This document shows positions 34,563 through 56,979 of a DNA stretch of 64,000 nucleotides, one piece after another (positions within the stretch are counted from its first letter, which is position 1; each line of letters starts with the position of its first letter). Source of the stretch: an uncultured Aquimarina sp. (lineage in GTDB: Bacteria; Bacteroidota; Bacteroidia; Flavobacteriales; Flavobacteriaceae); assembly GCA_938011245.1 (NCBI GenBank), contig CALLUJ010000002.1:28888-92887 (forward strand), written 5' to 3'. A program made the position numbers and the translations under genes. A model generated the notes under the pieces. It did not search any database. It had not been told where the DNA came from and was given only the letters and a program-made list of their open reading frames with translations.

Positions 34563-34632
34563 GACTAAAAGTCACTTACCAGTCTTTAAAATCGGACATT
34601 TTGTCTTTTTTAAAGGTTGGTATTGTAATTGA
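34563..34632 (+). promoter_or_regulatory. clpB upstream region: two GAC-N5-GTC boxes plus sigma54-like -24/-12 element
   Basis: GACTAAAAGTC (34563-34573), GACATTTTGTC (34595-34605), TTGGTATTGTAATTGA (34617-34632; GG-N10-GA). Confidence 0.55.
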
Positions 34633-34688: not shown

Positions 34689-37271
34689 ATGAATTTTAAT
34701 AATTATACCATAAAGTCTCAAGAAGCCGTACAACAAGCACAACAAATTGCGCAAAGCTATGGGCATCAGCAAATAGAAAATGAGCATATTTATAAGGCAA
34801 TAACTGAAGTAGACGAAAATGTACTGCCGTATTTGCTTAAAAAACTCAATGTAAATCAGCAGCTAATAAATCAAATTTTAGAGAGTACGCTACAAAGTTT
34901 TTCGAAGGTAACAGGAGGGCAACTACAGTTAGGAAGAGAAGCAAATACTACTTTGTTAGAAGCGAGTACAATTGCTAAAAAAATGAAAGATGAGTATGTG
35001 TCTATAGAGCATTTGTTGTTAGCCATTTTTGATTCTAAAAGTAAGATAGCTCAAATTCTAAAAGACCAAGGAGTCACTAAGAAAGGGTTACAGTCAGCTA
35101 TAGAACAAGTGCGTAATGGAGAGCGTGTTACCTCCCAAAGTGCCGAAGATACCTATCAATCCTTAAATAAATATGCTAAAAACCTTAACGATTTAGCCGA
35201 GAAAGGTAAATTAGATCCAGTAATTGGTAGAGACGATGAAATTCGTAGAGTTTTACAAATTTTATCCCGAAGAACTAAAAATAACCCTATGCTAGTAGGT
35301 GAGCCGGGTACAGGTAAAACCGCTATTGCAGAAGGTTTGGCTCATCGTATTATTTCTGGAGATGTGCCAGAAAACTTAAAAGAAAAACAGTTGTTTTCTT
35401 TAGATATGGGAGCACTTATTGCAGGAGCGAAATACAAAGGAGAATTCGAAGAACGTTTAAAATCGGTAGTAAAAGAAGTAACCAATTCGGATGGAAATAT
35501 TATTCTTTTTATAGACGAAATTCATACACTAGTTGGAGCAGGTGGTGGAGAAGGAGCTATGGATGCTGCAAATATTTTGAAACCGGCTTTAGCTAGAGGG
35601 GAGCTTAGGGCTATTGGAGCTACAACTTTAGATGAATATCAAAAATACTTTGAAAAAGATAAGGCCTTGGAACGACGTTTTCAAAAAATACTTGTAGAAG
35701 AGCCAGATACAGAAAGCGCTATATCTATTTTAAGAGGAATTAAAGATAAGTACGAAACCCACCATAAGGTTCGTATTTTAGATGAAGCTATTATAGGAGC
35801 AGTAGAATTATCACAGCGCTATATTTCCAATCGTTTTTTGCCGGATAAAGCAATAGACTTAATGGACGAGGCAGCTTCTAAATTGAGAATGGAAATTAAT
35901 TCTAAGCCTTTAGAATTAGATGTTTTGGATCGAAAAATAATGCAATTGGAAATAGAAATAGAAGCTATTAAGCGCGAAAATGATGTAGAAAAATTAAAAG
36001 GACTAAATGCAGAATTAGCAAACCTTAAAGAAGAACGCAATGCTATTTATACCAAATGGAGTGGAGAAAAAGAGGTGGTAGATAACATTCAACAGCATAA
36101 ACGGGAAATAGAAGAATTAAATTTAGAAGCCGATAGGGCAGAGCGTAATGGAGACTATGGAAAAGTGGCCGAGTTACGCTACGGAAAAATAAAAGAAAAG
36201 CAAGAAGTTTTAGAGAAGCTTATGGCTACCTCTGCAGATAAAGGGGAAAGTGCTTTAATTAAAGAAGATGTTACTTATGAAAACATTGCCGAGGTTGTAG
36301 CTAAATGGACAGGAATTCCAGTAACCAAGATGCTACAAAGCGATCGAGAAAAATTATTAAAGTTGGAAGACGAATTGCATAAACAGGTAGTAGGACAACA
36401 TAATGCTATTGAGGCAGTAAGTGATGCTATTCGAAGAAGTAGAGCAGGGCTTCAAAACCCAAGTAAACCCATAGGTACTTTTTTGTTTTTAGGAACTACT
36501 GGAGTTGGAAAAACGGAATTAGCCAAAGCTTTAGCAAACTATTTATTTAATGATGAAACAGCTATGGCACGTATTGATATGAGCGAATATCAAGAACGTC
36601 ATTCGGTAAGTAGGTTAGTAGGAGCACCTCCTGGCTATATAGGATACGATGAAGGAGGGCAGCTTACCGAAGCAGTACGTAGAAAACCTTATTCGGTAAT
36701 ATTATTAGATGAAATAGAAAAAGCACATCCAGATACGTTTAATATTTTGTTACAACTATTAGATGAAGGAAGATTAACTGATAATAAAGGACGAACAGCC
36801 GATTTTAGAAATACGATTATAATTATGACTTCTAATATGGGGAGTGAAATTATAAAGGATAAATTTGAAACTATCGATAACCCAGAAAAGGCATCTGAAT
36901 TAGCTAAAATTGAAGTTTTGGGAGTTTTAAAACAACAACTTCGCCCAGAATTTTTAAATAGAATTGACGATATTGTAATGTTTAGCCCATTAACACAAGA
37001 TAATATTACCGAAATTGTAGATATACAATTAAAAGGTTTAGCCCGTATGTTGTCGGAACAAAATATAACTATAGATGCGACCACAGAAGCTAAAGTTTTG
37101 TTATCAGAAAAAGGGTTTGACCCAGAATTTGGAGCAAGACCAGTAAAAAGAAGCATACAAAAGTTGGTTTTGAATGAGCTGTCTAAAAAAATGCTCTCTG
37201 GAGAGGTAAAAAAGGAAAGCACAATTCTTATAGATACCTTCGATTCTAAAATTGTTTTTAGGAATATTTAA
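34689..37271 (+). CDS. clpB: Chaperone ClpB
   Basis: Two AAA+ modules (GEPGTGKT, GTTGVGKT), coiled-coil M domain with AELRYG, GARPVKR. Confidence 0.98.
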   Translation: MNFNNYTIKSQEAVQQAQQIAQSYGHQQIENEHIYKAITEVDENVLPYLLKKLNVNQQLINQILESTLQSFSKVTGGQLQLGREANTTLLEASTIAKKMKDEYVSIEHLLLAIFDSKSKIAQILKDQGVTKKGLQSAIEQVRNGERVTSQSAEDTYQSLNKYAKNLNDLAEKGKLDPVIGRDDEIRRVLQILSRRTKNNPMLVGEPGTGKTAIAEGLAHRIISGDVPENLKEKQLFSLDMGALIAGAKYKGEFEERLKSVVKEVTNSDGNIILFIDEIHTLVGAGGGEGAMDAANILKPALARGELRAIGATTLDEYQKYFEKDKALERRFQKILVEEPDTESAISILRGIKDKYETHHKVRILDEAIIGAVELSQRYISNRFLPDKAIDLMDEAASKLRMEINSKPLELDVLDRKIMQLEIEIEAIKRENDVEKLKGLNAELANLKEERNAIYTKWSGEKEVVDNIQQHKREIEELNLEADRAERNGDYGKVAELRYGKIKEKQEVLEKLMATSADKGESALIKEDVTYENIAEVVAKWTGIPVTKMLQSDREKLLKLEDELHKQVVGQHNAIEAVSDAIRRSRAGLQNPSKPIGTFLFLGTTGVGKTELAKALANYLFNDETAMARIDMSEYQERHSVSRLVGAPPGYIGYDEGGQLTEAVRRKPYSVILLDEIEKAHPDTFNILLQLLDEGRLTDNKGRTADFRNTIIIMTSNMGSEIIKDKFETIDNPEKASELAKIEVLGVLKQQLRPEFLNRIDDIVMFSPLTQDNITEIVDIQLKGLARMLSEQNITIDATTEAKVLLSEKGFDPEFGARPVKRSIQKLVLNELSKKMLSGEVKKESTILIDTFDSKIVFRNI

Positions 37272-37274
37272 TTT

Positions 37275-37290
37275 TTGGCACACTATTTGA
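37275..37290 (+). promoter_or_regulatory. Sigma54-like -24/-12 element immediately after the clpB stop
   Basis: TTGGCACACTATTTGA (GG-N10-GA; TTGGCAC matches the -24 consensus). Confidence 0.6.
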
Positions 37291-37300
37291 TCTATTAAAT

Positions 37301-37373
37301 ATAGTTTAGTTAGTTTTAAGTTAGTTGGTTAGTAACGCTCGTAAGATTTTATATCTTACGGGCGTTGTTTATT
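37301..37373 (+). ncRNA. Candidate small RNA with AGUU/UUAG repeats and terminal hairpin
   Basis: C-free 33-nt repeat tract between a sigma54-like promoter and a 14-bp terminator hairpin; no ORF. Confidence 0.45.
37334..37373 (+). terminator. Intrinsic terminator after clpB/candidate sRNA
   Basis: AACGCTCGTAAGAT-TTTAT-ATCTTACGGGCGTT followed by GTTTATTT. Confidence 0.85.
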
Positions 37374-37569
37374 TAAGTAATAAACTTGATATGTTTAATC
37401 TCTACAAGTTTAGTTACCAGATGTTTGCATCGTACAAAGAAGAAATTTTTGAAAATCGTAGGTTTTCATCAAAGAAATTAGAATTCTAACAAATACGTTG
37501 CATGCTTGTATCGAGGAAATTTATTAATTACATAATTTAATCAAAAAAGAAGTATTTTAGTAGCAAATT

Positions 37570-38037
37570 ATGAAGACAAAAGTACAAACGGTAAATATCC
37601 AAAATAAAAAAGCCAAATTTGAATTTGAAATTTTGGATAAATACACCGCAGGAATTGTACTGCGAGGTACCGAAATTAAAGCGATACGCGAAGGTAAAGC
37701 AAGTATTGCCGAGAGTTTTTGCGAGTTTAATGATAAAGGAGAGCTTTTTGTGGTGAATATGACTATTCAAGAATATTCACATGCTACTTACTTTAATCAT
37801 AATCCTAAATCGGAACGTAAGCTATTATTAAATAAAAGAGAACTTAAAAAATTGGAAAAAGAAGTTTCTCAAAAAGGATTAACCATTGTTCCTTTAAAAG
37901 TTTTTACTACAGAAAAAGGCTTTGCTAAAATGATTATTGCATTAGCTAAAGGAAAAAAGATATATGATAAACGAGAGACAATAAAAGATAGAGACAATAA
38001 AAAAGATTTAGCGCGTATAAAAAAGAATTTTTCATAA
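37570..38037 (+). CDS. smpB: SsrA-binding protein
   Basis: NKKAKFEF, AGIVLRGTEIKAIR, RKLLL, GKKIYDKRE. Confidence 0.98.
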   Translation: MKTKVQTVNIQNKKAKFEFEILDKYTAGIVLRGTEIKAIREGKASIAESFCEFNDKGELFVVNMTIQEYSHATYFNHNPKSERKLLLNKRELKKLEKEVSQKGLTIVPLKVFTTEKGFAKMIIALAKGKKIYDKRETIKDRDNKKDLARIKKNFS

Positions 38038-54789: not shown

Positions 54790-56979
54790 GTGGATGACAA
54801 CGAATTAGAACAAGCGCTCAAGAAATATTTTGGTTTTAGCCAATTTAGAGGTTTACAAGAACAAGTAATTAAAGGTGTTTTAAATAAACAGGATACCTTT
54901 GTAATTATGCCAACAGGTGGCGGAAAATCTTTGTGCTATCAGCTCCCAGCATTAATGCTAGAAGGAACCGCAATTATTGTATCTCCTTTAATTGCATTAA
55001 TGAAAAATCAAGTAGATGCTATACGTAGTATTTCTTCCGATAATGGTATAGCACATGTTTTAAACTCTTCTCTGAATAAAACAGAGATTGCTCAAGTAAA
55101 ATTGGATATCACATCGGGAATTACTAAGTTACTGTACGTTGCACCAGAATCTTTAGTTAAAGAAGAGTATGCATCGTTTTTAGCAACACAAACTATTTCG
55201 TTTTTGGCAGTAGACGAAGCTCATTGTATTAGTGAGTGGGGACATGACTTTAGACCAGAATACAGGAATTTAAAGCGTATTATTGGTACTATAGGAGACA
55301 ATATCCCAATTATTGGTTTAACAGCTACGGCAACACCTAAAGTACAAGAAGATATCTTGAAAAATTTAGGGATATCGGGAGCAAATACTTATAAAGCTTC
55401 TTTTAATAGACCTAATTTGTTTTATGAAGTACGCCCTAAAACCGCTAATGTAGAAATGGATATTATTCGTTTTATAAAACAAAACGAAGGTAAAAGTGGT
55501 ATTGTGTACTGTTTAAGTAGAAAGCGTGTCGAAGAATTGGCACAGGCGTTGCAAGTTAATGGAATTAAAGCAGTGCCCTACCATGCTGGTTTAGATGCTA
55601 AAAAAAGAGCTAGCCATCAAGATATGTTCTTAATGGAAGATATAGATGTTGTTGTGGCTACTATTGCGTTTGGTATGGGAATAGATAAACCAGATGTACG
55701 TTTTGTAATCCATCACGATATTCCAAAGAGTATAGAAAGTTATTATCAAGAAACAGGACGGGCAGGTCGAGATGGTGGAGAAGGACATTGTTTAGCGTAC
55801 TATTCATACAAAGACATAGAAAAATTAGAAAAGTTTTTAAGTGGAAAACCAGTAGCAGAACAAGAAATAGGAATGGCTTTGTTACATGAAATTGTTGCCT
55901 TTGCCGAAACCTCTATTTCTCGACGTAAATTTATACTTCATTACTTTGGAGAACATTTTGATGAATCCACAGGAGAAGGAGGCGACATGGACGATAATGT
56001 TCGTAACCCTAAAAGTAGAGTAGAAGCAAAAGAAGAAGTAACTAAAATTTTATTAGTAGTAAATAAATCTGGAGGAATATATAAGTCTAAAGAAATAGTA
56101 AATGTACTTATAGGTAAAGAAAATGCATTAATAGTATCTCATAAAACACACACGCAGCCCTTTTTTGGAATAGGAAAAAAGCATGAAGCTAAATATTGGG
56201 TGGCGTTAATTAGACAAGTAATTGTATCTGGTTTTATTAAAAAAGATATTGAAACTTATGGTATTCTTAAAATAACAGATTCGGGTAAACAATTTTTGGA
56301 TAAACCAAAAGGTTACTTAATGACAGAAGATCATAGTTTTGACGATACCGAAATATTATCAAATATAAAGTTAGGATCCTCGGTTAGTACCGATGAAAAA
56401 TTATTAAAATTATTAAAAGACCTTCGTAAAAGAGTAGGAAAAAAGCTTTCTGTGCCACCATTTGTAGTCTTTCAAGACCCATCTTTAGAAGATATGGCAT
56501 TTAAATACCCAATTACTATAGAGGAATTATATAATGTACATGGCGTTGGAGAAGGAAAAGCAAAGAAATACGGAAAAGAATTTATTAGTTTAATAAAAAA
56601 GTATGTAGACGACAATGATATTGTTAGGCCAGATGATTTTGTCGTAAAATCAACAGGAGCTAATAGTGCAATTAAACTATATATTATACAAAGTATAGAT
56701 AGAAAACTACCACTTACCGATATTGCAGATGCTAAAGGAAAAACCATGGACGAGTTTATCTCTGAGATGGAAGCTATTGTATATAGTGGGACCAAATTAA
56801 ATATCGGTTATTGGATAGATGATCATTTAGATGAAGAACAACAAGAAGAAATTCATGATTACTTTTTAGAGTCAGAAACGGATAATATAGAAGAAGCTAT
56901 GGAAGAATTTGATGGAGATTACGAAGAAGAAGATCTTCGTCTATATCGTATTAAATTTATATCTGAAGTAGCAAACTAA
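54790..56979 (+). CDS. recQ: DNA helicase RecQ
   Basis: [29 protein letters not shown]; RQC and HRDC domains; GTG start. Confidence 0.97.

Follow-up and report, generated by a model that had tools for sequence, protein, structure and literature searches.

We propose that the 3′ end of clpB in an uncultured Aquimarina sp. contains an embedded small RNA gene that is read from a sigma54-type promoter of its own, that this RNA probably base-pairs with other messages in trans, and that the cassette from which it is built is modular and distributed across the Flavobacteriaceae. We hold the proposal as a whole tentatively, with somewhat less than even confidence; its sigma54-driven small-RNA component is, judged from the genome comparisons, well supported. 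In outline, a sigma54 promoter 3 nt past the clpB stop codon would drive a non-coding RNA of ~73 nt, made up of an unstructured G/U-rich tract of AGUU and UUAG units and a terminator that would also end the clpB mRNA. Because the unit shares the clpB 3′ end and has a promoter of its own, the tract would be present in the cell both as the 3′ UTR of clpB and as free small RNA, in each case under sigma54, the factor that drives the protein-quality-control genes in flavobacteria. The same cassette ends not only clpB but also hsp20, Spy-like genes and several genes for exported proteins, and at other loci it stands alone behind sigma54-type promoters. The single-stranded tract may pair with A/C-rich CAACUAACCAACC-like boxes just upstream of start codons and thereby block translation of selected mRNAs under stress, many of them for membrane proteins, and the RNA would then be a non-coding arm of the sigma54 stress response.

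The Flavobacteriaceae are a major family of marine bacteria and fish pathogens that lacks sigma32, the phylum to which they belong has unusual translation start signals, and to our knowledge regulatory RNA has barely been explored in the family. The clpB small RNA is a concrete and testable candidate linked to the regulon through which sigma54 controls heat shock and quality control. Its locus is present in the cultured A. agarilytica ZC1 and A. agarivorans HQM9. The family-wide cassette is a more interesting result than the single locus. It ends clpB in ~40% of the sampled genera and also follows hsp20 and envelope-stress genes; the comparisons suggest a conserved RNA signal missing from all databases, and point to an arm of the sigma54 stress response that works through RNA and has not been described before. 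If the RNA acts in trans, it would show stress mRNAs doubling as regulators.

The window analysed here is a 64,000-nt stretch of the Aquimarina genome, and the features below are all on its plus strand. The open reading frame list places clpB (860 aa) at 34689–37271, with the stop codon at 37269–37271. The sigma54-type promoter of the small RNA occupies 37274–37290, with TTTGGCAC as its −24 element (TGGCAC at 37276–37281) and TTGA as its −12 element (37287–37290). The sequence-only reading had placed TTGGCACACTATTTGA 3 nt beyond the stop, and it lies there, at 37275–37290; GG at 37277–37278 and GA at 37289–37290 give it the GG-N10-GA form, and the stretch 37276–37290 fits the sigma54 form TGGCAC-N5-TTGA with GG and GA exactly 10 nt apart. 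The tract ATAGTTTAGTTAGTTTTAAGTTAGTTGGTTAGT follows at 37301–37333 and has the composition claimed for it: 33 nt with no C, five AGTT units and four TTAG units. The intrinsic terminator (37333–37376) is also present as described, except that the stem, given earlier as 14 bp, is counted here as 15 pairs, one of them G-U; the hairpin, which has a loop of 5 nt, spans 37333–37367, and T-rich sequence continues to ~37376. Inspection of the sequence and of terminators reveals no hairpin from the clpB stop to 37333. With no terminator before the small-RNA hairpin, the clpB mRNA must include the small-RNA sequence as its own 3′ UTR, and the terminator is common to the two transcripts. The small RNA itself is predicted to extend from 37302 to 37376 (~73 nt) on the basis of promoter geometry, fold and covariance-model matches in 10 genomes, with the start taken from the usual spacing, ~12 nt past the −12 element, and the end placed at the T-run.

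Folding of the 75-nt RNA leaves the first 31 nt unpaired in the minimum-energy structure, which agrees with the earlier statement that the tract is poor at self-pairing and with its prediction here as single-stranded. The hairpin contributes −21.2 kcal/mol (z = −4.7 relative to shuffles) and is the sole hairpin of the 37301–37376 transcript. Coding potential was likewise correctly judged to be lacking: the only reading frame in the region starts with TTG and is not kept in the orthologues, and a small protein encoded by the unit was rejected for want of a conserved open reading frame. We take the tract at 37301–37333 to be the conserved functional part of the unit, a view that rests on its sequence and on the alignment discussed below. 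Part of it, AGTTGGTTAG at 37322–37331 of the window, is also a common tRNA D-loop sequence, and a search with the complement matched a tRNA gene on contig C70.

Downstream of the unit lies smpB (37570–38037), which has its own promoter region. In F. psychrophilum, 5′-end mapping gives smpB its own sigmaA start site and shows it to be nearly leaderless (PMC9723704). Between the small-RNA terminator and smpB, at 37395–37530 of the window, we also observed a repeat of ~135 nt. Three further copies occur in this genome (G000 C12:6550–6686, C21:25730–25858 and C74:13847–13982; 78–85% identical) and others in further Aquimarina genomes; the repeat has no Rfam match and may be a mobile element or an RNA gene.

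A covariance model built from three copies of the unit was run on 91 Aquimarina genomes. Ten of them have the unit, always as a single copy, and A. agarilytica ZC1 and A. agarivorans HQM9 are among these. All 10 copies are directly after clpB, and smpB is the next gene in nine. In the alignment of the 10 orthologues, the −24 element (TTTGGCA) and the −12 element (TTG) are each 100% identical, while the 6-nt spacer between them has 60% identity and the flank upstream of the promoter 56%. The spacing is fixed and the elements are invariant while the spacer sequence drifts. The tract retains 85% column identity; the terminator stems are at 80–92% and their loop at 60%, with compensatory changes at 4 of the 11 consensus pairs. 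In two of the orthologues the tract differs in length by a complete AGTT unit, an insertion or deletion of one entire repeat. These comparisons support the earlier claim of an sRNA unit of ~70 nt under a putative sigma54 promoter. In the other Aquimarina species examined, clpB ends in a plain terminator. A separate element was noticed in Aquimarina genomes that have no small RNA, where a palindrome-like TTACGGTTTTACCGTAG followed by TTAACA lies ~120–170 nt after clpB, upstream of a conserved gene (loci L004, L006–L008, L010, L013, L014, L016, L019, L025 and L030).

The suggestion that the RNA belongs to a paralogous family was not supported within this genome. An nhmmer search found no close paralogue of the unit in its own genome; two further short sites in which a tract precedes a terminator are present there, and many related cassettes occur in other genera. 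The pattern (GTTR)x3 occurs five times in this genome, three times within 30 nt upstream of a terminator. The two additional sites, at C23:14700(−) and C109:11779(−), each have a terminator within 30 nt; AT-rich intergenic sequence surrounds one of them, and the other forms the 3′ UTR of a gene for a secreted protein. GTTAGTT was rejected as a general pre-terminator motif of this genome, since GTTAGT-type hexamers are only ~2.7-fold enriched at such positions. The tract pattern also matched sequences of Leptospira, of Acidobacteriota and of two further MAGs from the Flavobacteriaceae, all of which were judged to be chance.

The promoter assignment is consistent with the sigma54 machinery and promoter set of the genome. 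It encodes rpoN (Sigma54_DBD, 173.8 bits) and three full sigma54 activators (Sigma54_activat). TGGCAC-N5-TTG is found twice in the window, against 0.22 occurrences expected, and 12 times in the whole genome (2.99 Mb, 31% GC), mostly within genes. The second occurrence in the window, TGGCACAGGCGTTG at 55538–55551, lies inside an open frame of 729 codons and is probably due to chance. Among the 10 Aquimarina genomes the orthologous promoters read TGGCA[CT]-N5-TTG[ACGT], and that of A. agarilytica, TGGCACATTTATTGC, has the full consensus TGGCAC-N5-TTGC. In this genome the −12 element is TTGA rather than TTGC, a variant also used by mapped flavobacterial sigma54 promoters, among them that of F. 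psychrophilum clpB (PMC9723704). As the sequence-only reading had noted, the same GG-N10-GA form precedes clpB itself: its sigma54-type promoter, TGGTATTGTAATTGA, is at 34618–34632, with the ATG 56 nt downstream. The mapped sigma54 (SM4) promoter of F. psychrophilum clpB, TTGGAATAACAATTGA, has this form too (supplement to PMC9723704).

Intergenic TGG-N8-TTG[AC] motifs precede the stress genes clpB, htpG, lon and grpE here, and they are also found ahead of msrB, of one thioredoxin-like gene, of one activator gene and of several genes for exported proteins. In F. psychrophilum, 5′-end mapping placed sigma54 promoters at groES, lon, dnaK, grpE–dnaJ, htpG and clpB, and sigma54 start sites also at three sRNAs, Rfp1, Rfp36 and Rfp45 (PMC9723704). 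The predicted heat-shock promoter set of this genome mirrors that mapped regulon. Two GAC-N5-GTC boxes (34563–34573 and 34595–34605) lie upstream of the clpB promoter and may form an operator or activator site. A GACAnTTTGTC box is located 12–15 nt before the −24 element at clpB, htpG and grpE here and at F. psychrophilum clpB, and may serve in heat shock as an operator or as a site for an activator. The small-RNA promoter differs from those of clpB, htpG and grpE in having no GAC-N5-GTC box, and a different activator may therefore serve it; any activator site of this promoter would fall inside the clpB coding sequence, and none was identified. Elsewhere in the genome, on the minus strand of contig C118 near position 2510 (locus L267, G000), a short hairpin and a T-run come after a perfect TGGCACATCACTTGC, and the next 625 nt contain no long open reading frame; this may be a second small sigma54-driven transcript.

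Related cassettes extend well beyond Aquimarina. A second model, run over 401 Flavobacteriaceae genomes, gave ~70 weak matches, of which 59 were inspected. Six of these follow clpB, six follow hsp20 and several follow Spy/LTXXQ-like, YHS-domain and recurrent exported-protein genes; TGGCA[CT]-N5-TTG is present upstream in two of the 59. The C-terminal homology of clpB is present in 110 of 111 family genomes, and the clpB 3′ flanks of 80 other genera were scanned for (GTT[AG])x3 within 200 nt past the stop. The pattern was found in 32 of the 80, at a median of 48 nt from the stop, compared with none of 80 on the antisense strand and 0.0006 per 200 nt at unselected loci. The usual form is TTG-GTTGGTTAGTTG-AAAAGCAACG...CGTTGCTTTT, that is, a tract and a terminator whose stem is itself conserved, and the number of tract units varies from 2 to 5 between genera. 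Of these 32 cassettes, 6 passed a strict automatic check for terminators, which accepted only short loops on stems without mismatches; inspection by eye does show the inverted repeats and T-runs. We conclude from this distribution that the tract-plus-terminator cassette is old and modular in the Flavobacteriaceae.

A sigma54 motif between the clpB stop and the tract was found in none of the 32 cassette-bearing genera, so the internal promoter after clpB is particular to a subclade of Aquimarina. Units of promoter, tract and terminator with no open reading frame do occur at other loci of other genera (L085, L210 and L211), including after uvrA in two genera, and the same sigma54-type promoter motif is found at L101, after lipA. 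The canonical tract TTGGTTGGTTAGTTGA itself fits TGG-N8-TTG (clpB 3′ flanks L139, L140, L150, L171 and others), and naive sigma54 scans will therefore flag it. Downstream of many flanks of this type come ATATACC...GGTATAT palindromes and a TetR-like gene. At L133 (G159), a (TGGTTGA)n microsatellite of ~9 units lies directly after clpB, where other genera have the GTTGGTTAGTTG tract.

The distribution of the cassette across the family is new here, and no described family matches it. The Rfam search for which the sequence-only reading had called, as a match to a described family would have ended its case, returned none: at permissive thresholds the window and 13 related loci (cassettes of other genera) gave nothing credible, and the best of the Bacteroides sRNA models was BTnc049, with 16.6 bits against a threshold of 81.9 bits. 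A literature search with the tract sequence gave no match, nor did the tract string match anything in the F. psychrophilum supplementary data, sRNA list included, to the extent that these were available (PMC9723704).

How might such an RNA act? A unit made up of promoter, tract and terminator alone offers no target in cis, which favors an RNA that acts in trans. The exact complement CAACTAACCAACC with an ATG 2–12 nt after it is found in 54 of 401 genomes, and a reversed-pattern control gave a single match. Most of the matches are cassettes read backwards; among 30 sampled loci, seven are true start regions of long open reading frames, with an exact 13-nt complement 3–9 nt before the ATG. Five of the seven frames look like membrane proteins when their N-terminal sequences are judged by eye, and the genes that have the complement box differ between genera. 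Within this genome, 59 start regions are complementary to the tract over 9 nt or more, compared with 37 for the reversed tract and 22 for a within-gene control. This weak enrichment (1.6-fold) may reflect the A-rich composition of start regions. A genome-wide duplex scan of start regions produced no outlier target in this genome, and the leaders of the sigma54 regulon show no enrichment of pairing. The best local pairing site is at an MBOAT gene that has many paralogues and no clear ortholog. Pairing with tmRNA, considered on account of the neighboring smpB, was rejected (z ~ −1.2). The bolder form of the proposal, in which a portable cassette, attached to stress mRNAs or standing alone, would silence mRNAs with CAACUAACCAACC boxes as a family-wide post-transcriptional arm of sigma54 that needs neither Hfq nor an RRM protein, is possible but on balance doubtful.

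An alternative is that the cassette acts in cis only, as a 3′-end module that sets termination efficiency or 3′-end stability, and that the promoter motif is either a weak promoter with no role or a stress promoter that reads into smpB. Such a module would account naturally for the 32 of 80 genera in which the cassette follows clpB with no intervening promoter and for the many other coding genes that it follows. A promoter reading into smpB gains from the three orthologues in which smpB begins ~31 nt past the terminator, and ribosome rescue would suit a quality-control regulon. The distance to smpB ranges, however, from 31 to 334 nt across the orthologous loci, a repeat element has been inserted between the two in this genome, and a strong 15-bp terminator stands in the way. 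Furthermore, a motif with no role would not be expected to show −24 and −12 elements that stay identical across 10 genomes amid drifting surroundings, the units without an open reading frame at unrelated loci of other genera have no cis cargo, and the modest hexamer enrichment noted above shows that the tract is no general pre-terminator feature here. We consider a purely cis-acting module unlikely, if far from negligible. That the locus has no function at all, the 3′ UTR of clpB merely holding a promoter-like word that arose by chance and a simple repeat prone to slippage, is very improbable. With 31% GC the genome is AT-rich, the tract has low complexity and ~12 TGGCAC-N5-TTG words exist genome-wide by any cause, yet chance does not explain promoter elements and a tract conserved across 10 species, or a several hundred-fold enrichment of the tract after clpB over 80 genera with none on the antisense strand.

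The sequence-only reading itself favored a protein sponge, in which the repeat units would titrate an RNA-binding protein. Applied to the wider cassette, this would mean that the protein normally occupies the tract wherever it forms part of a 3′ UTR, as on clpB, hsp20 and further stress mRNAs, and that the free sigma54-driven RNA competes for it through its AGUU and UUAG units. The tract does offer short repeated units in a single-stranded region. Its length changes in whole AGTT steps among orthologues and from 2 to 5 units among genera, a variation that a binding platform tolerates better than a fixed seed does, and its recurrence on many mRNAs that are otherwise unrelated suggests that a single factor recognizes them all. 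Protein sponges driven by sigma54 are also known elsewhere: CrcZ of Pseudomonas carries A-rich (AAnAAnAA) repeats that bind Hfq/Crc. In the sponges CsrB, RsmY and RsmZ, many GGA motifs, mostly in hairpin loops, bind CsrA/RsmA. The likeness to these RNAs goes no further than repeated short motifs on a small RNA and, for CrcZ, the promoter. The tract here is G/U-rich rather than A-rich and Hfq is absent from this genome, as had been anticipated, so the RNA is not of the CrcZ type; the earlier comparison with CsrB and RsmY fails in that the 37301–37376 transcript has no GGA motif, in loops or otherwise, and its tract is linear and confined to ~five or six units in 33 nt. The proposed RRM partner fares no better. 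Neither this genome nor any of 19 further Flavobacteriaceae genomes has a protein of the RRM_1 class, to which RbpB belongs, whereas the B. thetaiotaomicron control was positive, and the RRM-sponge mechanism thereby loses its stated premise. Titration of some other protein is conceivable, although nothing that we found points to one and no candidate protein emerged. We regard a sponge as quite unlikely, and return to the 3′-UTR-embedded, base-pairing small RNA as the preferred reading.

Among known systems, close parallels to this preferred reading include the enterobacterial small RNAs embedded in 3′ UTRs or tied to stress regulons, such as DapZ, MicL and CpxQ, the last from the cpxP 3′ UTR. 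Like these, the clpB small RNA has its promoter at the end of the upstream gene, just after the coding sequence, a terminator in common with the mRNA and a place in the stress regulon of its host gene, and the cassette also occurs after Spy/CpxP-like genes. The enterobacterial RNAs differ in needing Hfq and in being controlled by sigmaE, Cpx or other regulators and not by sigma54, and none of them is a repeat tract reused on many genes. A sigma54 promoter before a non-coding RNA is in turn shared with CrcZ/CrcY and the Qrr RNAs, which are sigma54-dependent, and with GlmY, which is so as well (PMC3045617). Rfp1, Rfp36 and Rfp45 show that flavobacteria make sigma54-driven sRNAs, and were rejected as relatives since their sequences, lengths and locations are unrelated (PMC9723704).

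Within the phylum, GibS and FopS of B. thetaiotaomicron are ~65–145 nt long, with a long unstructured 5′ seed ahead of a terminator hairpin, and act by pairing at translation start regions (PMC7366714; bioRxiv 10.1101/2023.12.22.572801). FopS is a multicopy modular family with one member derived from a 3′ UTR, and the protein partner of these RNAs, RbpB, is an RRM protein (same sources). The clpB small RNA resembles them in phylum and in its unstructured 5′ part followed by a terminator. Their promoters are not of the sigma54 type, in contrast to the one predicted here: FopS is on a housekeeping promoter and GibS on PM2, a non-canonical motif associated with stationary phase (PMC7366714; bioRxiv 10.1101/2023.12.22.572801).
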